A DNA stretch of 37,346 nucleotides from an uncultured Candidatus Saccharibacteria bacterium (lineage in GTDB: Bacteria; Patescibacteriota; UBA1384; JAMDBS01; CAZXAY01): positions 1 through 37,346 of the forward strand of contig CAZXAY010000004.1 in the NCBI GenBank assembly GCA_964638435.1, written 5' to 3'. The notes beneath the pieces are model-generated. The model did not search any database. It saw nothing but the letters and a program-made list of their open reading frames with translations, and was not told the origin of the DNA. How positions within the stretch are numbered: position 1 is the stretch's first letter; every line of letters starts with the position of its first letter. This document shows positions 3,354-37,346 of the stretch, piece by piece. Made by a program: the position numbers and the translations under genes.

Positions 3354-3454
3354 ATTTTTATTATAATTGATTTTACTAATCTCTGTCGAATTTTTCCTCA
3401 GATTTAAAACTTCCTTTATTTTATGCGTACGCTTTTTTTAGAGGAAGTTGAATA

Positions 3455-4099
3455 TTATTTGTTGATTTTTAATAAACTTGCGTTATCACAACATGAATAA
3501 GCACTGGAGTAAACACTGTATAAAAAATCACTCATCAAATATTTCTTTTTACCACCTCTATGATTCCATAGAGAATCGTTTGCATAAACGAAATTATCTT
3601 TATACCCAGTTACCACATTAAAATGAAGGTTAAATTCTGGCTTGTCACTTTCAAAAATATTGGGAGTTAATATTGTAATTAGTGGTCTCTTGTTATCAAT
3701 CTCGTTTTTAACATCATCAGCATTAGGAATTTTTAGCTCTATTTTCCCACCCGCTTTTATAAATTTCAAACTAAATTTTAATGATCTTATGTTCTCTAGT
3801 TTTCTCTCTTTTTTAAGAATATTTTTTAAACGCTGGACAATCTCTTTTTGAATAAGATTTTTATCTTTAAAAGTAAACAAATATGGATTAAGCGTGGTCA
3901 TAGTAACTTTAAAACTCTTTTTTATCAAATATTGCCCAAGTTGTGGCATATAAGTACCCATTTTATAAACTTTAATCTCTTCACGCAGTTTTTCAATATT
4001 AATTTTAACGCCATAAAAATTCAAGACCATAGCTACCGCAGCCAACCCGCAATCAACTGAATTCTTTTTTTGCCTAATAAGTGGCACATTTAATTGCAT
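3455..4099 (-). CDS. papain-like cysteine peptidase (C39-like)
   Basis: The N-terminal QKKNSVDCGLAAVAMVLNFYG is a C39-type Q...C motif. An RBS GAGGAG lies inside the end of the upstream gene, and the gap to the amidase gene is 3 nt. Confidence 0.6.
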   Translation of the reverse strand: MQLNVPLIRQKKNSVDCGLAAVAMVLNFYGVKINIEKLREEIKVYKMGTYMPQLGQYLIKKSFKVTMTTLNPYLFTFKDKNLIQKEIVQRLKNILKKERKLENIRSLKFSLKFIKAGGKIELKIPNADDVKNEIDNKRPLITILTPNIFESDKPEFNLHFNVVTGYKDNFVYANDSLWNHRGGKKKYLMSDFLYSVYSSAYSCCDNASLLKINK

Positions 4100-4102
4100 A
4101 TT

Positions 4103-4876
4103 TTACTCCTCATCCGCAGGGATTATTTGATCATTATTAATTACTGGTTCAATACTATCAGGATTTTCAAAATAGTTAATAATCCCATCAACTATCCCTT
4201 GAGCCTCGTCTTTTAATCGCGTTGAACCAGCTTTAGTCAGTAAATTATATTCTTCACTACTACTCATAAAAAATGCCTCACTAATAGTTGCTGGCATATC
4301 CGCCTTTGATAATATTCGGGAATTTAATTTGGCAACTCCTCCATTTTTGATGCCAAGCCTATTTGACACACCACTAACAATACTACTAGCTAACACTTGG
4401 TCAAACTCAGTATAATATAATGACGATGAGTAATTAACAGTCGGATCAGTGTATGAATTATGATGAATTGCCACCATAATCTCAGCCTTGGTATTGTTGC
4501 AATAATTATAACGATCTTGTTTTGATAATGATTGATCACTTGTTCTAGTCATATAAACCTTGTAACCCTTATCTTCAAGGATAGTTTGCATTTTTAAAGC
4601 CACTGTTAAATCAATCTCTTTTTCAATAATTTTTTTATTATTACCACCCTGATCCACCCCTCCGTGACCAGCATCCAAACAAACTGAATGTGAATTGCTA
4701 ATCTCTTCTTCTTGAGTTACCTCCACTCCCAAAAACTTGGAAAATTCTTCGCTCTCTGCAGGTTTATTGTTAACAATAGCGGATTTAATCACAAAAAACC
4801 CCACAATTATCAGGATAACAAAAAAAATAGGTGACTTCTTCCTTTTAACTTGCCCCGGTCTAATAAATCTATTCAT
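4103..4876 (-). CDS. N-acetylmuramoyl-L-alanine amidase (Amidase_3 type), membrane anchored
   Basis: There is an N-terminal TM segment. Motifs are CLDAGHGGVDQGG, EKEIDL, the MTR motif and AIHHNS. Confidence 0.8.
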   Translation of the reverse strand: MNRFIRPGQVKRKKSPIFFVILIIVGFFVIKSAIVNNKPAESEEFSKFLGVEVTQEEEISNSHSVCLDAGHGGVDQGGNNKKIIEKEIDLTVALKMQTILEDKGYKVYMTRTSDQSLSKQDRYNYCNNTKAEIMVAIHHNSYTDPTVNYSSSLYYTEFDQVLASSIVSGVSNRLGIKNGGVAKLNSRILSKADMPATISEAFFMSSSEEYNLLTKAGSTRLKDEAQGIVDGIINYFENPDSIEPVINNDQIIPADEE

Positions 4877-21819: not shown

Positions 21820-22839
21820 CTATACCAACGCTCTTTTGATCATAAATTCGACATTCTTGTTAGTTTTAGTATAGACAATAGTTATCCCAGAATATTGAGA
21901 TTGCCAAACACGAAATACTTCATCGGCAAACCCTTGTCCAATAGTTTCTACCTGATCAAAATCTAAAATAATAGTATTAAATTTATCAAGCCCAGACATC
22001 ACCCTTTTGGCCCGTGAACGGGAAAGAAAACTAGTTCCATGCTGAAATAGTTTGACCTTAATTTCAGATTTATTAAAACTAAAATTATTATCAGTATATT
22101 TTTTAAAAATCTGGTTTAATTGTGTCTTGCTGGTTTGGTCAATTTCAAAACGTACCTTTGTACCTTGATGTCTAGCAATCTTTGTTATAAATATATCATT
22201 AATATTATTATCAAAAATCAACCCAATATCTGAGCTTTCGATAATCAGTTTATCAGCTACTTTAGAAGTAAAAAATATACCTTCTCCAGAATGTCTTTGA
22301 GGCATAGTGGTTTGTTTCCCCTTAAATAAGTCCTCTACTGCCTGCATTTCGTTTTTTAGCTTCTTTTTAATTTTAATATTATTAAAAATTCCCACACCTT
22401 GATCGGCAATCTCAAAACTAAATTTATCATCTACCAAGTTAGCATTTACCGTAACAAATTTAGATTTGGAATGGTCTATGGCGTTATTAAGCATCTCGGT
22501 AAAAGCATATTCTATAATAACACGAACATTTCTAGAAAGATTTGCCAAATGAATAATATTTTGTTCTAAATCAATAAAAACTTGATGTTCATGCAAATTT
22601 TTATTTAATATTCTCTTTTTAAATATATTCTGATTGTTTTGTAGTTTTTTAAGATTTTCTTTACTAAACAAAACATACTCGGCATTATGTGTTATGCCAA
22701 ATTTAATAATCCTTTTCTCTTCTAATAATTGGTTAACAATTCTATTTAAATACTGCCTGGAGACTTTTAATTTCTTGGTTAAAATAGATGATTTAACTAT
22801 CTTAGATTCTTTTATTAATTGTAATATTTTATTCTTCAT
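21820..22839 (-). CDS. wHTH / GHKL-type ATPase / STAS-like (DUF4325-type) fusion protein
   Basis: The N-terminal wHTH is SSILTKKLKVSRQYLNRIVNQLLEEKRI. ATPase motifs are the N-box EMLNNAIDHS, G1 DQGVGI and G2 GEGIFF. The C-terminal ILDFDQVETIGQGFADEVF matches the DUF4325 pattern from memory. Confidence 0.65.
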   Translation of the reverse strand: MKNKILQLIKESKIVKSSILTKKLKVSRQYLNRIVNQLLEEKRIIKFGITHNAEYVLFSKENLKKLQNNQNIFKKRILNKNLHEHQVFIDLEQNIIHLANLSRNVRVIIEYAFTEMLNNAIDHSKSKFVTVNANLVDDKFSFEIADQGVGIFNNIKIKKKLKNEMQAVEDLFKGKQTTMPQRHSGEGIFFTSKVADKLIIESSDIGLIFDNNINDIFITKIARHQGTKVRFEIDQTSKTQLNQIFKKYTDNNFSFNKSEIKVKLFQHGTSFLSRSRAKRVMSGLDKFNTIILDFDQVETIGQGFADEVFRVWQSQYSGITIVYTKTNKNVEFMIKRALV

Positions 22840-22931: not shown

Positions 22932-22978
22932 AGCCATGAACCAATTGGTAACCTACGGTTACCTGCTGGTTCATGGCT
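22932..22978. other. long nested hairpin overlapping the tRNA-Asn 3' end
   Basis: AGCCATGAACCA pairs with TGGTTCATGGCT, and GGTAACC-tac-GGTTACC lies inside. Confidence 0.6.
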
Positions 22979-23048
22979 CCGGAGCTCGGACTCGAACCGA
23001 GAACCCTCTCCTTAACAGGGAGATGCTCTGCCATTGAGCTACTCCGGA
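22974..23048 (-). tRNA. tRNA-Asn (anticodon GTT), CCA encoded
   Basis: The reverse complement reads TCCGGAG-TA-GCTCAATGGCAGAGC...CTGTTAA...CTCGG-TTCGAGT-CCGAG-CTCCGGA-G-CCA. Confidence 0.88.
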
Positions 23049-23056
23049 ATAAATTG

Positions 23057-23311
23057 TTATTTAATATTATCAAATAATTTTTTAATAAATTTTCTACCCG
23101 CGTGTGATTTTAAATACTTTTCTCTTTTGCATGCTTGTTGCTTATTGTCAAATGTTTCAGTATAAAATAATTCCCACGGTTTAAATTGGCTAGTATATTT
23201 ATTCGAGCCAGAATTATGTTCCTTTAGTCTTTTCTGAACATCTAATGTATAGCCAACATATGTCTTGGACATCACCTTACTTTTTAAAATATAAATATGA
23301 TAATTGATCAT
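23057..23311 (-). CDS. GIY-YIG nuclease minigene (84 aa), copy 1
   Basis: The protein is MINYHIYILKSKVMSKTYVGYTLDVQKRLKEHNSGSNKYTSQFKPWELFY...KREKYLKS. The start was set at the internal ATG, because the longer ORF reads through the leader and the tRNA fragment. Confidence 0.8.
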   Translation of the reverse strand: MINYHIYILKSKVMSKTYVGYTLDVQKRLKEHNSGSNKYTSQFKPWELFYTETFDNKQQACKREKYLKSHAGRKFIKKLFDNIK

Positions 23312-23399
23312 TGTCCGTCTTATGTCTAGATTACTATACAAAAGCCGAGACCTCGGCTCGCAATAATTTGCGAGACGGGAGCTACTCCGGAATAAATTG

Positions 23400-23654
23400 T
23401 TATTTAATATTATCAAATAATTTTTTAATAAATTTTCTACCCGCGTGTGATTTTAAATACTTTTCTCTTTTGCATGCTTGTTGCTTATTGTCAAATGTTT
23501 CAGTATAAAATAATTCCCACGGTTTAAATTGGCTAGTATATTTATTCGAGCCAGAATTATGTTCCTTTAGTCTTTTCTGAACATCTAATGTATAGCCAAC
23601 ATATGTCTTGGACATCACCTTACTTTTTAAAATATAAATATGATAATTGATCAT
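23400..23654 (-). CDS. GIY-YIG nuclease minigene (84 aa), copy 2 (identical)
   Basis: It is offset from copy 1 by exactly 343 nt. Confidence 0.8.
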   Translation of the reverse strand: MINYHIYILKSKVMSKTYVGYTLDVQKRLKEHNSGSNKYTSQFKPWELFYTETFDNKQQACKREKYLKSHAGRKFIKKLFDNIK

Positions 23655-23851
23655 TGTCCGTCTTATGTCTAGATTACTATACAAAAGCCGAGACCTCGGC
23701 TCGCAATAATTTGCGAGACGGGAGCTACTCCGGAATACTAAAAATATTTTAGCACTAAATTTATTTTTTTGCAACAGCTTGAAATATTTTAATTAATCCA
23801 TTGTATTAATTATTACGAGCTCGATATTAATTAATAAAGAAAGGAAAATTA

Positions 23852-30334: not shown

Positions 30335-32164
30335 TTAAAAAACTTTTTCTATAATTCTAATATCCAGCTCTGATGGCTCGAGCTTTAAGTAAAAATCAAC
30401 TAAATTGCCTGATAAGCTAAGAGGTAGTTCTTTTTTAGTTTTAGATTTGATAATTTTTTTGAGCGGTGAGATAATCTTGCTCTGCATCTCATTACGATCG
30501 TGATTATAAGCTGACTCGGGTAGGCTAGCGCTAGCTATATTCTTGCCAATATTTTCTAATAACACTTGCAAAACCTCGATTGTTGCCGAGGTACTATGCA
30601 ATTGTTTAGAAGTTAATTTTTCTCCTTTAATATAAATTTTTTCTTCAACCAAATCAATTAATAAATCTATATGGCTTTTCTCTTTTTCAAGCTTTTCTAA
30701 TGTACTAAGTTCAGATGCAAACCCTTCAAAATGATATTTTTTAAAACTCACACTACCCTGGGATATAAATTTTGATCTAATCCCTTCTTCAAGATGCTGT
30801 TCGATTTTTACCCCTTCCTCCTCAATCCCATCAAGCCATGAGGCATAATCTAACTTGATCTTTTTATCAAATCTACCTTGTAAATAATTAATTATTTCCG
30901 ATATTTTATCTCTTAATACCCATGAAGGAAATATAGCTAAAATATCTCCACCTCCGCCAGCACCTAATGGTTTAGCTACAATGGAATAATTAAATTCATC
31001 TTTGACTTTTCTCTCAAGCTCAACACACAGTTCGTTTGTTCTTATAATATCGTGTCGCAATAAAGGGAAAAAACGACTATATTTTTTAATTGTACTAATA
31101 ATTTGTTGTGCATCACCAGTTAAAGAAGTTTGGTAGAACCCCGCTATTACTTCTAAACTTATATATCCTAAAAATTGAATGTATTTTTCCCAAATTCGAA
31201 AATTATTCTCAATAAAATCTGTTTTATATAACGATTTATTAATAAATTTGTCGGTCATGTCACTTTTAATTTGTCGAAGAATTTGATTTACAAGATTGTT
31301 GGTATCTAATTCATAGTTATTTGTTGTTCTTTGCAATTCGTCAGAGCGATACTCTCGTCCAGTATAAATTAAACAATAATCAATAGAGTCAAGTGGATTT
31401 TTATCAATATTAAGCAAATCATTTAATCGCGAAAAATAGTAATCAATTTTATCTATACAATCATATTCCGGGTGGATGTTGGCAGGGATAGGCGTGTCAG
31501 AGTCGTTAAGTTGGCCAAAACGTTTTTCATGAAACTCAATCAAGGGATAACCATATTTAAGTAACGCCCAAGGAGTTGCATTTCCTGCACATCCACCATG
31601 GTAAATACTAAGTAATTTGTGCCCCAATTTAAGCAAATCAAAATATCTAGAATCTTTATAAAAATCATTTATTTTACCATCAGTTATCTTATCTATATCA
31701 TCAGACTTTAAATTCGAAAAATATAGGTTTATACCTACAGATAAGGCTGTTGCAAACCCAGGAGAAAAACCGCTACTTGATCCTGGCCTAACTTCACTAA
31801 TAATATGTATTGTAAATTTAGAGAGATTCTTAAATCTATTGTTAAATTTTTCTAAATATTCAAGAACTAATTCCGATGGAAAATACGCATTTTCATCAAA
31901 CTTAATAAAATTATTTGTATCTGGATCAAAATATAAACAATTACCATAACTATTTTTACTTTTTGATAATTCCAAACCGATAAATATCCTTAATGGGATA
32001 TGATTGGTGATTGCAATCCCACCTTGTTGACAGGTGTATTCACCAGCCCAAAGAATTTTCCCCGGGGCGCTCACCACAACCGGACATTTACTAAAAAAAT
32101 CCCCATACACTTGTGGGAAGTGCTTTTGTAGGGATTTCGAATTCATGGTGATACGATTATTCAT
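30335..32164 (-). CDS. GHMP-family kinase fused to a C-terminal OmpR/PhoB-type winged-helix-like domain
   Basis: GHMP motif 1 is VSAPGKILWAGEY, motif 2 is VRPGSSSGFSPGFATALSV and motif 3 is KPLGAGGGGDILAIF. The C-terminal IYIKGEKLTSKQLHSTSATIEVLQVLLEN...NEMQSKIISPLKKII...FYLKL follows the Trans_reg_C pattern. A GTG alternative start lies at 32173. Confidence 0.65.
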   Translation of the reverse strand: MNNRITMNSKSLQKHFPQVYGDFFSKCPVVVSAPGKILWAGEYTCQQGGIAITNHIPLRIFIGLELSKSKNSYGNCLYFDPDTNNFIKFDENAYFPSELVLEYLEKFNNRFKNLSKFTIHIISEVRPGSSSGFSPGFATALSVGINLYFSNLKSDDIDKITDGKINDFYKDSRYFDLLKLGHKLLSIYHGGCAGNATPWALLKYGYPLIEFHEKRFGQLNDSDTPIPANIHPEYDCIDKIDYYFSRLNDLLNIDKNPLDSIDYCLIYTGREYRSDELQRTTNNYELDTNNLVNQILRQIKSDMTDKFINKSLYKTDFIENNFRIWEKYIQFLGYISLEVIAGFYQTSLTGDAQQIISTIKKYSRFFPLLRHDIIRTNELCVELERKVKDEFNYSIVAKPLGAGGGGDILAIFPSWVLRDKISEIINYLQGRFDKKIKLDYASWLDGIEEEGVKIEQHLEEGIRSKFISQGSVSFKKYHFEGFASELSTLEKLEKEKSHIDLLIDLVEEKIYIKGEKLTSKQLHSTSATIEVLQVLLENIGKNIASASLPESAYNHDRNEMQSKIISPLKKIIKSKTKKELPLSLSGNLVDFYLKLEPSELDIRIIEKVF

Positions 32165-32327
32165 ATCACCCACAATTTATCACTTTTTCCAGCTAAAGTC
32201 AATCCCTTCTTTACTGTTAATTCTTTCCTGTTAATTATTGTTATAATTAAACCTAACCACTATAACAGCGATAGTGTTTATAGTGGTATTGTGGTTGTTG
32301 GAAAGTAATCAGCAGTAATCTGACAAA

Positions 32328-32585
32328 TTACTTTCCTATTATCTCCAGAGTACTTTTTACCGAGGCATTATCAGTATTAATATATTTAATATCTTTAGTA
32401 ATTGTTTTTAGGCCACTAATAAATTCATCTGCCCAAGAAGGAGCGAGTACTGCCACATCTGCAAAATCAAGTTCTAGCGGTTCCTGTTTATCAGATAAAA
32501 TATAAGCCTTGGTTACCAAAAAAGCTTCCCTACCAGCTGGACGAGAAATTAACATTTTACCAAATCTATCCATTTTTATTGTCAT
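32328..32585 (-). CDS. STAS-like (DUF4325-type) small protein
   Basis: ISRPAGREAF...LELDFADVAVLAPSWADEFISGL parallels the C-terminus of the 21820-22839 protein. Confidence 0.6.
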   Translation of the reverse strand: MTIKMDRFGKMLISRPAGREAFLVTKAYILSDKQEPLELDFADVAVLAPSWADEFISGLKTITKDIKYINTDNASVKSTLEIIGK

Positions 32586-32641
32586 ACAAATCTCCGATTT
32601 GTTTCCTACTAATTACAAATTAAACTAATTACGAATCATTT

Positions 32642-33226
32642 CTAAAAACAAATAGCTGCGATTGTTCCTTCGATATTTTCGTCGCTATTTTCAAAAACTA
32701 ACTTATAATCTGGCTTATCAATAATTACTTTAGCTTTTCCAGAATGAAACATTAATCCCCATCTATTTTCTTGCATAATTTTACTAACAAATTTTAAACC
32801 ATTACCACGCTTTTCAGGAGCTCTGCCAGAAATTGTTTGGGTAAAAGCTACATTAATTGCTTTTAAATCATCTGCAATTTGAGGTATAACTTTTTGAATA
32901 GTTTTTTTAATACCTTGCCCCCGATCAGCTAAAACAATAATCTTATTTTCAAAATCGTAATTAAAATAAATTCCCGGGATATCTCGCCAATTTCCTAAAT
33001 TGTGATCGTATGAATTGTTGCCAATTTCTCCTACAACAGCCGTTAAAAGTGATGAGATGTTTATATTATCAACATTTTTTTCTAAAATAATTCTAAATTT
33101 GTCCAATCTACCAAAAAAAACATCTCGATTATCACAATATTTATCGGGATTTATTTTTATTGGTTCATTTAATTCTGACACAAATTGATAAGCATTTTTA
33201 ATTATTATATTTTTTGTATCAATCAT
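32642..33226 (-). CDS. GHKL-type ATPase (RsbW/SpoIIAB-like serine kinase fold)
   Basis: Motifs seen are the N-box EIGNNSYDHN, G1 DRGQGI and G2 GNGLKFV. Confidence 0.65.
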   Translation of the reverse strand: MIDTKNIIIKNAYQFVSELNEPIKINPDKYCDNRDVFFGRLDKFRIILEKNVDNINISSLLTAVVGEIGNNSYDHNLGNWRDIPGIYFNYDFENKIIVLADRGQGIKKTIQKVIPQIADDLKAINVAFTQTISGRAPEKRGNGLKFVSKIMQENRWGLMFHSGKAKVIIDKPDYKLVFENSDENIEGTIAAICF

Positions 33227-33232
33227 AGCCCT

Positions 33233-33261
33233 ATTATACCCATTTCTCTTGACAAAAGCAA
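33233..33261 (-). promoter_or_regulatory. promoter TTGCTT-17-TATAAT, 6 nt before the ATG (leaderless-type)
   Basis: On the minus strand, TTGCTT lies at 33261-33256 and TATAAT at 33238-33233. The ATG is at 33226. Confidence 0.55.
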
Positions 33262-33282
33262 GAATTATGGTTTAGCAACTAG

Positions 33283-33933
33283 TTATTTAATGCTTAATAC
33301 AAAATCAATTAATTGTTTTTTAGCTACCTCAAAACCCGATAAAATTAATGGTTGTATTTTATCAATTTTATCAATTGCCTCGAGAGATTTTTCTAAAAAA
33401 ATCACCTTATCAATCTCCACGCCAAATTTTTTAATTGCGCCACTATGTAGTTTTTTTAAACTCAAATTTTTATTTTTTTTAGCGATCCAATAAAGATCAA
33501 ATATATGTTTCGATCCAACATTTTCATAAAGTGCTAATATCTTATTTTCTGCAACAGATTTAACACTATCAACTCTTATGTTAAATTCCTTAGATATTTT
33601 TTTATCCATTAATTTACCAAAGGGAAAATAAACAAATTCTAATTTAATAATATCTTTATCGGAAAAAATTAGATTAAAAATCTGACGATTTTTATCTTTT
33701 TGATATTTTATCTGTTTTATTTTAAAATTACTTTTTAATTTATTAATCTCACCTAGCAATACTTCATCACTATAAAGGTCATCAGAAAAAAAATCTAAGT
33801 CTTCACTTAAGCGATGTTTTAAATAAATTTCTGCTAGCGCCGTACCACCAGTAAAATAAAAATTATGACTAAAAAAATTGCTCCTAGATAAAAAGTTAAG
33901 AATTTGTATTTGTTTATTAGTTAGAATTTTCAT
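33283..33933 (-). CDS. AbiEii/DUF1814-like nucleotidyltransferase (type IV toxin-like)
   Basis: FYFTGGTALAEIYLKHRLSEDLDFFS is the NTase motif. KILALYENVGSKHIFDLYW is also present. Confidence 0.7.
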   Translation of the reverse strand: MKILTNKQIQILNFLSRSNFFSHNFYFTGGTALAEIYLKHRLSEDLDFFSDDLYSDEVLLGEINKLKSNFKIKQIKYQKDKNRQIFNLIFSDKDIIKLEFVYFPFGKLMDKKISKEFNIRVDSVKSVAENKILALYENVGSKHIFDLYWIAKKNKNLSLKKLHSGAIKKFGVEIDKVIFLEKSLEAIDKIDKIQPLILSGFEVAKKQLIDFVLSIK

Positions 33934-34138
33934 TATTAAAATATAGTTTAATCGCTTTTTTTCTATACGGAGAAATATTAAGTTTATTAAGGTTTTTGAC
34001 CAACACTTTTTTATCTAACCCTACCCAATCAGCCATTTGAGCTTTACGCTCTAAATACCATAACAAAACTTTAGGATCACTAAGATCTTTTTTACTAATT
34101 TTATAATCCCAAATTGAGATATCATTTAGCATTTTCAT
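33917..34138 (-). CDS. 73-aa putative cognate antitoxin/partner
   Basis: It overlaps the NTase gene by 17 nt. SIWDYKISKKDL...WYLERKAQMADWVGLDKKVL parallels the 35384-35686 product. Confidence 0.55.
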   Translation of the reverse strand: MKMLNDISIWDYKISKKDLSDPKVLLWYLERKAQMADWVGLDKKVLVKNLNKLNISPYRKKAIKLYFNNENSN

Positions 34139-34144
34139 ACCTTA

Positions 34145-34173
34145 ATTATACCCTTTTACCTTGACAAAAGCAA
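34145..34173 (-). promoter_or_regulatory. promoter TTGCTT-17-TATAAT, 6 nt before the ATG (leaderless-type)
   Basis: It has the same box as 33233-33261. The ATG is at 34138. Confidence 0.55.
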
Positions 34174-34189
34174 GATTTTATGATATAAT
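34161..34189 (+). promoter_or_regulatory. consensus promoter TTGACA-17-TATAAT with a TG extension
   Basis: TTGACA lies at 34161-34166 and TGATATAAT at 34181-34189. It is divergent from the minus-strand promoter, and their -35 boxes overlap. Confidence 0.7.
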
Positions 34190-34346
34190 TTCTTGTTAAA
34201 GTCTGAATATTGTATATTTCGATAATCTCAGGCTAATGTTCATTAAAAAACTGATATTTATTCTTACGAGGCAAATTGCTCATAATTACATATATTATGT
34301 TCAGCTTGCTTCGTAAGAAGTAATATTATCAAGGAGGGAAACTCAA

Positions 34347-35093
34347 ATGTCAGATCTCAATTTTACCCTCAAGTTCTATGACGGGGACGGCACGGTAATG
34401 GTTTACCATGTCAGCCAGAAGGAAAAAAATTTTTCCCTGGTAGAGGTCATCATCACCGGTAGCTGGGGATACGGGCCAGAGGAAACATGGTACCAATCTC
34501 TAGACGACCTACGTGAGAAGTTGGGAGAATCCCAGGAATGGAGCTGGCTTAATCACTTCTGGTTCGATGGCCGATCACTTGATGAAGTGAATGGCAAAAC
34601 GGTGCGCTTTCACTACAAGTCCCCATTCTCCATCACTATCGAAGACGAAAACGGTAATGACACAAAAACCGTCTTTGATCATGAGGGACTAGAAGCTCAA
34701 AAAAATGAGCAAAAGCAGTTCGCCAACATGCAGCTGCAGACGCTCAAAAGGATGGGTTACTCCGAAAAGGAGGCATCGAGCATCATTGGCTCGGCTGGAC
34801 CCGGTAGAGCCGTAGAGGCAGCACAATGGGCAGCAAAAAACTGCCCTATGTGCGAGACCGAGGTTAAGTGGGACGCGCTCATGATGGTGCTCAGTGGAGC
34901 ATTGACATCAGGAACCGGCTACGATCGATTGGTCGTTGCTATTGAGTCTCTCGGATTCTCTCGCGTCCCAGCCTGCGGATCCAGAACAGGGCTTGTAAAG
35001 TTTCTGAAAGGTGCCCGGGCAGCAATGTTCTCCCCAACTTTCAGAAGAAACGGTGGAGGACGACCAGTCGTCATCGACCAAGTTCCGGCATAA
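34347..35093 (+). CDS. 248-aa orphan protein in a high-GC island
   Basis: The RBS AAGGAGGG lies 8 nt upstream. A hand count of the first 120 nt gives 46% G+C, against 25% for 33281-33340. No motif was recognised apart from one CPMC. Confidence 0.7.
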   Translation: MSDLNFTLKFYDGDGTVMVYHVSQKEKNFSLVEVIITGSWGYGPEETWYQSLDDLREKLGESQEWSWLNHFWFDGRSLDEVNGKTVRFHYKSPFSITIEDENGNDTKTVFDHEGLEAQKNEQKQFANMQLQTLKRMGYSEKEASSIIGSAGPGRAVEAAQWAAKNCPMCETEVKWDALMMVLSGALTSGTGYDRLVVAIESLGFSRVPACGSRTGLVKFLKGARAAMFSPTFRRNGGGRPVVIDQVPA

Positions 35094-35101
35094 ATCAACC
35101 A

Positions 35102-35152
35102 ACCCGCTAAAGCATAATGCATCAAAAACATGTGCTAAGGCGGGTTTTTTCT
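35102..35152 (+). terminator. rho-independent terminator (long imperfect stem)
   Basis: AACCCGC...GCGGGTT is followed by TTTTTCTTT. Confidence 0.6.
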
Positions 35153-35164
35153 TTGCCAAAATTT

Positions 35165-35193
35165 TTGCAAAAAATCCAATTTTTTGCTATAAT
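35165..35193 (+). promoter_or_regulatory. promoter TTGCAA-17-TATAAT with a TG extension
   Basis: TTGCAA lies at 35165-35170 and TGCTATAAT at 35185-35193. Confidence 0.6.
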
Positions 35194-35383
35194 ATAGTTA
35201 TGCTCAGTAATACAACTTTCAGAATGTTTTAAAGATTTATTAAATTTTTGAAAAGACTTATCGATATTATCTGGGTTTATAATATGGTGATAGCTAGGAA
35301 GATATTAAACATTAATAAAAATTTAACTGGAAGGTTGACCCCGTATAGCTACTACGTGATTATACGGGGTGAATATACTGAGT

Positions 35384-35686
35384 ATGAAAATAAAATTTCG
35401 AAAAGAAATTTTTTGGGACACTGACCCTAAAACGATTGATTATCAAAAACATGCTATTTATGTTATTGGTAAAGTAATAAAATGGGGCAATCTTAGTGAC
35501 TGGCAAGAACTAAAAAAAATTTACTCAACAAGGAAAATAAAGGCTACAGTCAAAAAATTATGTGATCTTGACAACAAAGATAGAAATTTTATACACATGG
35601 TTTATGACATTCCTTTACAACAATTATGTACCAAGAGGCAGTTCGCTCAAAACTTATCTCCTTTCTACAATCGCTCGCAAAGATAA
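35384..35686 (+). CDS. about 100-aa putative antitoxin/partner of the second NTase
   Basis: KEIFWDTDPKTIDYQKHAIYVIGKVIKWGNLSDWQEL is present. The start was set at ATG 35384, because the GTG at 35369 lies inside the hairpin CCCCGTATA/TATACGGGG (35339-35369). Confidence 0.55.
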   Translation: MKIKFRKEIFWDTDPKTIDYQKHAIYVIGKVIKWGNLSDWQELKKIYSTRKIKATVKKLCDLDNKDRNFIHMVYDIPLQQLCTKRQFAQNLSPFYNRSQR

Positions 35687-36240
35687 AAGAAATTAATAAT
35701 TTTTATCTAGCTGGCGGCACTAGCTTGGCTTTGCAAATAGGACATCGAGAATCTATCGATTTGGATTTTTTTAGCTATAAAAAATTTTCTAATAAATCTT
35801 TAAAATCAGTTCTTGAACAAATTGGAAAATTACAAATCATTACTGATGAACCTAATACTCTAAACTTAACAATCGATAGAATAAAGCTGAGTTTTTTTTA
35901 TTATCCATATAAATTAATCCTTCCTACTTTGAGGTTTAAAGGAATTAATATTGCCGATAAACGAGATATTGCCGCAATGAAATTAGAAGCAATTGCAGGC
36001 AGAGGGAGTAAAAAGGATTTTATTGATATATATTATCTTTGCCAAAAATATTCTTTAGAAAAAATTTTGGCATGGTATAAAAAAAGATATAAAAATCTTA
36101 GTATCAACCAATTTCATCTCATAAAAAGTTTAACTTATTTTGTAGATGCAGAAAATGATCCAATACCAAAAATGCTCAAACCAGTCAACTGGACTCAGGT
36201 AAAAGAAGAAATTATTAAAGAAGTAAAAAAATTGGTGTAA
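35626..36240 (+). CDS. AbiEii/DUF1814-like nucleotidyltransferase, second copy
   Basis: FYLAGGTSLALQIGHRESIDLDFFS and RGSKKDFIDIYYL are present. It overlaps the upstream ORF by 61 nt. Confidence 0.7.
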   Translation: MYQEAVRSKLISFLQSLAKIKEINNFYLAGGTSLALQIGHRESIDLDFFSYKKFSNKSLKSVLEQIGKLQIITDEPNTLNLTIDRIKLSFFYYPYKLILPTLRFKGINIADKRDIAAMKLEAIAGRGSKKDFIDIYYLCQKYSLEKILAWYKKRYKNLSINQFHLIKSLTYFVDAENDPIPKMLKPVNWTQVKEEIIKEVKKLV

Positions 36241-37090: not shown

Positions 37091-37119
37091 TTGACAAACT
37101 AGTTAAAATATGATATAAT
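37091..37119 (+). promoter_or_regulatory. consensus promoter TTGACA-17-TATAAT with a TG extension
   Basis: TTGACA lies at 37091-37096 and TGATATAAT at 37111-37119. Confidence 0.7.
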
Positions 37120-37212
37120 TACGTTGTTAAGCTGAGAATATGAGAGTATTTAAAGCTTGGCAAATTAACAACAAAATACCCTATCCTCAGGGTTAAGAGG
37201 AGGAGAATACAT

Positions 37213-37326
37213 ATGCTGATTAATTATCGTGATATCCTGGATTGTTTTGATCAGAAAAACGGTATTCCGACCTCTTGTTTCTATCAAACCAACAATGTGG
37301 GCTTAATGGTCAAAACGGGGGTCTAG
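37213..37326 (+). CDS. 37-aa mini-ORF behind a strong RBS (not in the ORF track)
   Basis: AAGAGGAGGAG lies 7 nt upstream. The product is MLINYRDILDCFDQKNGIPTSCFYQTNNVGLMVKTGV, with a TAG stop at 37324. Its codon style (CTG, CGT, CCG) is unlike the AT-rich neighbours. Confidence 0.4.
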   Translation: MLINYRDILDCFDQKNGIPTSCFYQTNNVGLMVKTGV

Positions 37327-37346
37327 TTTCCTAATATTTGTTCGAT

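Follow-up and report, generated by a model that had tools for sequence, protein, structure and literature searches.

MenT toxins are nucleotidyltransferases (NTases) that add nucleotides to tRNA 3' ends, and their mechanism is known for MenT1, MenT3 and MenT4 only (PMC7450476, PMC10435456). In Mycobacterium tuberculosis, the toxin MenT1 (Rv0078A) is paired with MenA1 (Rv0078B), an antitoxin of 68 aa without DNA-binding domain, which blocks MenT1 by binding and by induced autophosphorylation (PMC7450476, PMC10435456, PMC11375011); according to PMC11375011, PDB includes the entries 8AN4 and 8AN5. The second described relative is AbiE of Lactococcus and Streptococcus agalactiae, a bicistronic type IV TA and abortive-infection system with the antitoxin gene first, whose PF08843 toxin AbiEii carries GG[ST]...DxD and Lys motifs and whose antitoxin AbiEi (COG5340) combines a winged helix-turn-helix (HTH) with a C-terminal domain. 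Here we describe a locus at positions 33283 to 36240 of a 37,346-nt stretch of DNA (hereafter, the window; contig CAZXAY010000004.1 of an uncultured Candidatus Saccharibacteria bacterium), in which two AbiEii-like toxin–antitoxin (TA) modules of opposite orientation enclose a single gene. We think that the locus is probably a small TA/variable patch, composed of two separate head-to-head AbiEii/DUF1814 TA modules and of an unrelated gene that was recently imported into their spacer. The host belongs to the low-GC Patescibacteria (candidate phyla radiation, CPR) from groundwater, and the window DNA occurs in a groundwater metagenome of 2012.

All five open reading frames (ORFs) that an earlier reading of this DNA from its letters alone (below, the sequence-only reading) had placed in the locus were present on ORF check. 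On the minus strand, a 73-aa putative antitoxin (partner-L, 33917-34138) overlaps by 17 nt the intact ORF of a 216-aa NTase (NTase-L, 33283-33933), a MenT-like AbiEii/DUF1814 protein of what we call the L-type subfamily. On the plus strand, a 100-aa putative antitoxin (partner-R, 35384-35686) overlaps by 61 nt the gene of a 204-aa NTase (NTase-R, 35626-36240), also MenT-like AbiEii/DUF1814, canonical in sequence and of the R-type subfamily. The longest ORF of partner-R begins with a GTG at 35369, and the ATG at 35384 is the start that agrees with its relatives. Between the two modules, the central ORF (34347-35093, plus strand) encodes 248 aa of an uncharacterised family and appears to have been acquired horizontally. 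Exact-protein look-ups of the window proteins gave no match.

Profile searches confirmed that both larger proteins are AbiEii-like NTases. NTase-L (65.8 bits, E 7.5e-18) and NTase-R (60.3 bits, E 3.4e-16) both scored above the gathering cutoff of Pfam PF08843 (22.5), and PADLOC AbiEii models agreed, 17 of them being matched by NTase-L and 14 by NTase-R. The two proteins are 32% identical (E 1e-11) and carry the N-terminal motifs of pol-beta-type enzymes, G-G-[ST] followed by [ST]-x-D-x-D (FTGGTALAEIYLKHRLSEDLDFF in NTase-L, LAGGTSLALQIGHRESIDLDFF in NTase-R), whose GG[ST] and [ST]-x-D-x-D residues are invariant in the alignments of both subfamilies. Both NTases have Ser43, which stands two residues ahead of the DxD and occupies the phosphoacceptor position of MenT1 T39 and MenT3 S78. 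NTase-R retains S43-x-D45-x-D47, D114, K119, D131 and D134, has complete C-terminal motifs III/IV (D-I-x-x-x-K ... [KR]-D-F-x-D-x-Y), and departs from the >=80% consensus of its subfamily at 2 positions only, both conservative. Its relatives number 7151 at E<1e-3, and those with a name are Patescibacteria, including Moranbacteria, Nealsonbacteria and Parcubacteria.

NTase-L retains GGT, R-x-S43-x-D45-L-D47, K131 and D146, and deviates from the >=80% consensus of its subfamily at 16 positions. Among these are D126S, at the D of the D-I-x-x-x-K motif where Asp is found in 99% of L-type members, and D143H, where Asp is found in 93%, so that motifs III/IV read S126 and H143 with K131 and D146 kept. 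The position of D143 lies 12 residues past the catalytic Lys, which equals the spacing of D149 after K137 in MenT1; for D149, a contact with the ribose 3'-OH is predicted (PMC11375011). Because two near-invariant aspartates are lost, the left toxin may be weakened or inactivated while its ORF remains intact.

The sequence-only reading had described the small partners as related to each other and as far shorter than AbiEi antitoxins. The difference in size held, as a short upstream ORF is the rule in both subfamilies: across 166 loci, a small ORF on the same strand abuts or overlaps the start of 150 of 165 NTases, none of them AbiEi-like, with median partner lengths of ~66 aa (L-type) and ~95 aa (R-type). 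Upstream of L-type NTases we counted 68 homologues of partner-L, and upstream of R-type NTases 68 homologues of partner-R. Neither partner had an AbiEi match in Pfam, PADLOC or NCBIfam, nor an HTH match. Partner-R is a DUF6922 protein (PF21956, E 3.3e-18, 65.3 bits for a cutoff of 27). Partner-L gave no Pfam or PADLOC match and no match to PF21956 at E <= 10; it is 34% identical (E 7e-6) to the partner of L021, a locus of Candidatus Howlettbacteria described below. The relationship between the two partners was upheld only in part: BLASTP found no significant similarity (E 2.2), while alignment of the partner profiles with hhalign found a shared N-terminal motif of about 30 residues, hW[DS].D...[ER]..N[FY]G, over 29 columns (probability 45%, E 2e-4), and some L-side partners reach DUF6922 scores below threshold. 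From these alignments, the two partner families would be at best remotely related. A search for DUF6922 in the searchable literature returned nothing. With >7,000 cluster representatives, found mainly in Patescibacteria, the pair of DUF6922 and a minimal AbiEii forms a very large family, and it extends the theme of the tiny antitoxin of MenA1 type.

Both modules resemble MenAT1 in that a DUF1814 NTase of ~200 aa follows the gene of a very short protein, here the putative antitoxin, with a Ser/Thr two residues before the DxD, a catalytic Lys and a C-terminal Asp (PMC10435456, PMC11375011). They appear to share the MenAT1 architecture of a short upstream partner without DNA-binding domain together with an S/T at the phosphoacceptor position. 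Unlike MenAT1, the window genes overlap by 17 to 61 nt, their mRNAs are apparently leaderless, and their host is a CPR bacterium. With AbiE they have in common all the features of toxin family, motifs and gene order given above; however, neither module has an AbiEi and the partners have only 73 and 100 aa. As AbiEi is absent, the modules are not AbiE in the strict sense. The window NTases are also ~100 aa shorter than AbiEii of S. agalactiae. By analogy with MenT1/MenA1 and MenT3, each NTase would extend the 3' ends of tRNAs by nucleotides and arrest translation, and its small partner would bind and neutralise it, perhaps also inducing autophosphorylation of the Ser two residues before the DxD; we infer on this basis that the window modules would work like MenAT1.

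The central gene is compositionally foreign, as the sequence-only reading had proposed. Its GC content is 0.50 and its G+C at third codon positions (GC3) is 0.55, while GC3 spans 0.16-0.39 in the 27 other window genes that were measured. The foreign codon composition is limited to the ORF, and the adjoining untranslated regions (UTRs) and non-coding DNA have 28-30% G+C. At the other end of the range, NTase-L has a GC3 of 0.16, the joint lowest in the window, equalled by the gene of a 194-aa protein that adjoins the left module.

The same gene had been called an orphan, and this did not hold. A word-seeded homology search with the central ORF returned only the self-match, and a word-seeded search with a profile of its family recovered one relative; an exhaustive phmmer search of 1.84 billion representatives then gave 39 remote relatives besides the central ORF at E<1e-3 (best 6e-19). 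Conservation in this uncharacterised family is confined to residues ~115-230, with F125, A126, G137, A150, P152, W161, D176, G191, R194 and G222 nearly invariant, while the N-terminal parts vary and are missing from some members, which have the C-terminal domain only. In the window protein, a beta-rich domain forms the N-terminal part, and the conserved C-terminal domain (~115-230) is helical and opens in a UBA-like manner. No Pfam family covers the central family, which gave weak UBA_7 matches in 4 members; searches of PHROG and of PDB sequences found no match, and neither did tblastn of the central ORF against phage and plasmid collections. AlphaFold2 with the family alignment reached a mean pLDDT (predicted local distance difference test) of 80.6 and >90 in the C-terminal domain, compared with 43 and an unusable model from the single sequence. 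A Foldseek search with the former model returned nothing below E 0.1 in PDB and BFVD. The predicted fold of the family is confident and has no counterpart among solved structures.

Four relatives of the central ORF could be placed (in L004, on the P0122 contig, in L167 and in L169). All stand alone among ordinary genes, none of the four has an AbiEii gene nearby, and the L167 relative adjoins a PIN toxin pair. Among the three for which composition was obtained, two are native-like in loci of ~50-56% GC and one is an outlier; the idea that every relative deviates in GC was rejected accordingly. A donor of ~50-56% G+C would fit the window copy, since two relatives are compositionally native at that GC. 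Two unannotated genes of ~250 aa upstream of the R-type module in locus L001 were also considered as relatives of the central ORF, and comparison showed them to be unrelated.

A promoter and a terminator of its own had been claimed for the central gene, and both were located. The gap between partner-L and the central ORF holds a palindromic bidirectional promoter module (34135-34190, inverted repeat I2). Its minus strand reads TTGCTT-17-TATAAT-6 nt-ATG, a promoter of leaderless type for partner-L, and its plus strand reads TTGACA-17-TGATATAAT, the putative promoter of the central ORF. The latter (34161-34189) matches the TTGACA-17-TATAAT consensus at 12 of 12 positions and has a TG extension; perfect promoters of this kind occur twice in 37 kb, compared with 0.05 expected by chance. 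The 5' leader that follows is AT-rich, 157 nt long and strongly folded (-44.8 kcal/mol, z = -6.9), with a hairpin at 34252-34328 on the plus strand (inverted repeat with 33-nt arms, 79% complementary) that ends 3 nt ahead of the Shine-Dalgarno sequence (SD) AAGGAGGG. Searching the leaders against Rfam gave no real family match. Downstream of the stop codon lies an intrinsic terminator (35101-35152, plus strand, inverted repeat I8), made of a hairpin at 35101-35146 with the stem AACCCGC...GCGGGTT and of the T-run TTTTTTCTTT.

Part of the bidirectional module is repeated in the window, as 34135-34178 is a direct repeat of 33223-33266 (44 nt, 82% identical, 0 matches expected by chance). The promoter module, of ~44-55 nt, precedes two minus-strand genes, partner-L and the 194-aa gene; in the copy of the latter (33223-33275), the plus-strand -10 box is degenerate. 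The TATAAT-6 nt-ATG spacing implies leaderless mRNAs, and the layout is likewise found in the R-type modules of L001, L021 and L028. The second perfect TTGACA-17-TGATATAAT promoter of the window stands at 37091-37326, with ~55 nt in common with the promoter and transcript start of the central ORF; downstream of it come a strong SD and a 37-codon ORF (MLINYRDILDCFDQKNGIPTSCFYQTNNVGLMVKTGV) that is, by eye, rich in G/C-ending codons. At the end of the window (37300-37346) the contig depth rises to 20x from 6x, which suggests a repeat.

We compared 80 genome loci with an R-type NTase and 80 metagenome loci with an L-type NTase, in which ORFs were called and profile-searched. Two AbiEii ORFs were found in 2/80 R-type and 8/73 L-type loci (153 related loci), mostly in tandem. 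The R-type module was alone in 78 of the 80 genome loci, and in the 57 loci whose upstream flank extends over 3 kb or more, that flank never contained a second AbiEii gene. L001/L002, the nearest relative (NTase-R 64% and holA 53% identical), has the same 100-aa DUF6922 protein and 204-aa NTase with the same 61-nt overlap as the window, and has neither the left module nor the central ORF. From the right module to holA the distance is 1.8 kb in L001 and 7.2 kb in the window, with different intervening genes; the synteny with L001 is therefore loose. A divergent pair with an L-type module on the minus strand and an R-type module on the plus strand, as in the window, was found in L021, where NTase-L is 34% and NTase-R 44% identical to the window proteins and the 400-nt spacer holds no gene. 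In L152 the divergent pair is tight and one NTase is frameshifted. The sole other case of modules bracketing a gene is L165, where two divergent L-type modules surround an SNase gene (PF00565, 1830-2633) for a membrane-anchored protein. This gene has a GC content of 0.55 against 0.47 in the flank, and the modules, at 0.37-0.40, are the low-GC parts; as read from composition, the history of L165 would be the reverse of that of the window, with a host-like enclosed gene and modules as newcomers. Beside its AbiEii pair, L021 also carries two ORFs at 3369-4290, one of 167 aa with a minimal-NTase-like motif and one of 141 aa. By eye this looks like an MNT/HEPN-like TA pair and, if that is correct, L021 would be a TA cluster as well.

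The right module carries the mark of another insertion. Its native leaderless promoter and original start are preserved at 35165-35202 on the plus strand (TTGCAA-17-TATAAT-ATAGTT-ATG), with 25 nt identical to L001, and the DUF6922 ORF of L001, L021 and L028 starts at the ATG next to TATAAT-ATAGTT. In the window, 180 nt (35203-35382) separate this promoter and ATG from the DUF6922 coding sequence. These 180 nt have terminal inverted repeats (TIRs) of 9-10 nt, CTCAGTAATA and TATACTGAG, and are flanked by a TATG target duplication at 35199-35202 and 35383-35386; excising them in silico restores the L001-type junction exactly. The ends of the element also match at least 4 other, unrelated contigs in X1-X3, three runs whose contigs were compared with the window. 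The 180-nt element is thus small, non-coding and multicopy, with TIRs and a target duplication, and resembles miniature inverted-repeat transposable elements (MITEs) in having TIRs, a 4-bp target duplication, no coding capacity and dispersed matches in the same metagenome. It differs from a full MITE case in that no parent insertion sequence was found and that only its ends, ~45-59 nt, were recovered elsewhere at >=85% identity. The insertion yields a 10-codon mini-ORF (MLSNTTFRMF) and a structured leader of 184 nt (z = -5.2), in which the paired TIRs cover the ATG at 35384. The hairpin CCCCGTATA-N13-TATACGGGG, considered as an operator of the DUF6922 module, was rejected, as it lies inside the MITE-like element and is absent from all 170 fetched loci.

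An assembly artefact, in which a GC-rich ORF of another organism was joined to this contig, would explain why the switch in composition coincides exactly with the ORF. It would also fit the state of the X1 assembly, whose contigs are broken at 34762-34864, overlap by just 21 nt (35102-35122) at the right junction, and have a depth of 3.8 over the 3' part of the ORF compared with 6.5. However, the left junction is crossed without mismatch by a single X1 Logan contig (32500-34761) that joins 1.8 kb of flank to 415 nt of the central ORF. On the right, a contig starts inside the ORF and reaches 29 nt past its stop into the terminator (34865-35122), and a third carries on into the flank (35102-35775). 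Since independent X1 contigs run across the junctions and the depths are of the same order, a chimera is very unlikely, and the SD, start codon and terminator of the central ORF are moreover contiguous with host-like UTRs. The sequence-only reading had raised another possibility, namely a system of three parts in which the enclosed gene works with the NTases. Modules and cargo would then form one defence unit, and the central protein could for example serve as sensor, target mimic or additional regulator. The components are indeed physically adjacent, the promoters of the central ORF and of partner-L have a common -35 region and could therefore be co-regulated, the variable N-terminal and conserved C-terminal domains have the layout of some sensor proteins, and the relative beside a PIN toxin pair points in the same direction. 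The comparison of loci, however, argues strongly the other way. All four placed relatives of the central ORF lack AbiEii neighbours, L001 and L021 lack the central ORF, and about 150 AbiEii loci contain no relative of it, jackhmmer and hmmsearch having returned NTases and partners only. The R-type module stands alone in nearly all its genome loci, the central ORF has its own promoter, SD and terminator, and its codon usage is recently foreign, unlike that of both modules. By synteny, the units essentially occur independently, with no recurrent association; the reading as one functional unit appears largely refuted and we hold it to be highly improbable.

The other proposal of the sequence-only reading, a recombination hotspot or cassette, found weak support in part. 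In its developed form, the gap between the divergent promoters of two addictive TA modules would favour and stabilise the insertion of varying cargo. L021 would then be the pair with an empty spacer and L165 a pair around a different gene; the MITE-like element landed within 110 nt of the central ORF terminator, and the gene content between holA and the right module differs between the window and L001. X2 and X3, which hold a near-identical strain (3 SNPs, single-nucleotide polymorphisms, in NTase-L), add a further hint: their contigs stop at 34348 and 34334, at the edge of the central ORF, an X2 contig picks up at 35142 after 8 divergent bases (GAGGGGGG), and no contig of either covers the ORF. 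This may reflect presence/absence or replacement of the ORF at strain level, or merely low coverage, and is a weak hint of variable cargo. As coverage of the region is only ~39% in X2 and ~23% in X3 and other gaps reach 959 nt, the missing ORF is not significant alone. On the other side, we found no direct or inverted repeats flanking 34190-35160, no target-duplication or TIR scars, no att-like sites or recombinase, no integrase or transposase at 30-37 kb, and neither an integrase nor a tRNA boundary for the patch within the window. Only two cargo-bearing cases occur among ~150 loci, one of them with the reverse history, and the pairs of the window and L021 are not especially close, so that the pairing may have arisen twice by chance. 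An insertion hotspot or gene-capture site is therefore unlikely. Still more doubtful to us is the wider idea that back-to-back AbiEii/MenT modules in CPR bacteria act as bookends, whose spacer takes in foreign ORFs and supplies a promoter while addiction protects the insert from deletion. If this were true, cargo should differ between close strains, and X2 and X3 compared with X1 would be such strains.

We therefore return to the reading of two separate TA modules with an unrelated, recently imported gene between them. Originally, TATAAT-6 nt-ATG promoters would have given leaderless mRNAs of both modules. Of the two, the right one would be the older resident, considering its host-like composition, its place near holA as in L001 and its consensus sequence, and a MITE-like element would later have hit its start codon. 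The left module would have arrived later, as it has the joint lowest GC3 in the window and is absent from L001. The central gene would come from a donor of ~50-56% G+C and would be expressed alone, from the plus-strand face of the left bidirectional promoter through its structured leader and strong SD to its own terminator. Its product is predicted to be soluble and would have a role separate from that of the NTases; an adaptor that binds other proteins is the most plausible guess. The inverted NTase pair with its supposed orphan would then be a chance neighbourhood in a variable region and no new defence architecture, and the locus would let gene flow, the activity of a MITE and perhaps the decay of a toxin be followed to the single nucleotide in a reduced CPR genome.

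Several observations weigh against this reading. A foreign composition that ends exactly at the ends of the ORF is unusual for ordinary horizontal gene transfer. Divergent AbiEii pairs recur at low frequency (L021, L152, L165), in L165 around a gene, which may point to some non-random tendency. We infer the antitoxin role of DUF6922 from its position alone. Searches of PDB for MenA1/MenT1 homology (phmmer and profile) gave nothing at E <= 10 for the partners and nothing at E <= 0.01 for the NTase profile; as neither the NTases nor the partners have a sequence-detectable link to solved MenT, MenA or AbiEi structures, the proposed mechanism rests on Pfam family membership. The central ORF was present in none of the RNA-seq runs, and the uncertainty on the function of its protein counts on the same side.

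The surroundings of the locus bring it close to chromosomal TA/defence islands, where TA modules and mobile DNA cluster in variable regions, in that two AbiEii modules, a split HATPase/DUF4325 pair, a MITE-like element and a foreign gene stand side by side; unlike such islands, the patch of the window measures ~4 kb and belongs to a reduced CPR genome. The split pair (32328-33226, minus strand) adjoins the left module and consists of the 194-aa protein, HATPase-like by motif inspection with weak NCBIfam sensor-kinase and phrog_3364 matches only, and of an 85-aa DUF4325 STAS-like protein. Elsewhere in the window (21820-22839, minus strand), a 339-aa protein has the Pfam domains HATPase_c and DUF4325 in one polypeptide. 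The HATPase/DUF4325 pair may form a further module of accessory or defence type. Between holA and the TA modules, in the part that is unlike L001, also lies the gene of a 612-aa protein (30335-32173, minus strand), with weak N-terminal similarity to GHMP kinases (mevalonate or phosphomevalonate kinase) and no Pfam family. Lastly, two small GIY-YIG ORFs of 119 and 124 aa lie in tandem at 23057-23774 (minus strand), slightly overlapping and with nearly identical Pfam scores, next to tRNA-Asn (22974-23048); the arrangement suggests that a small nuclease gene near the tRNA was duplicated.

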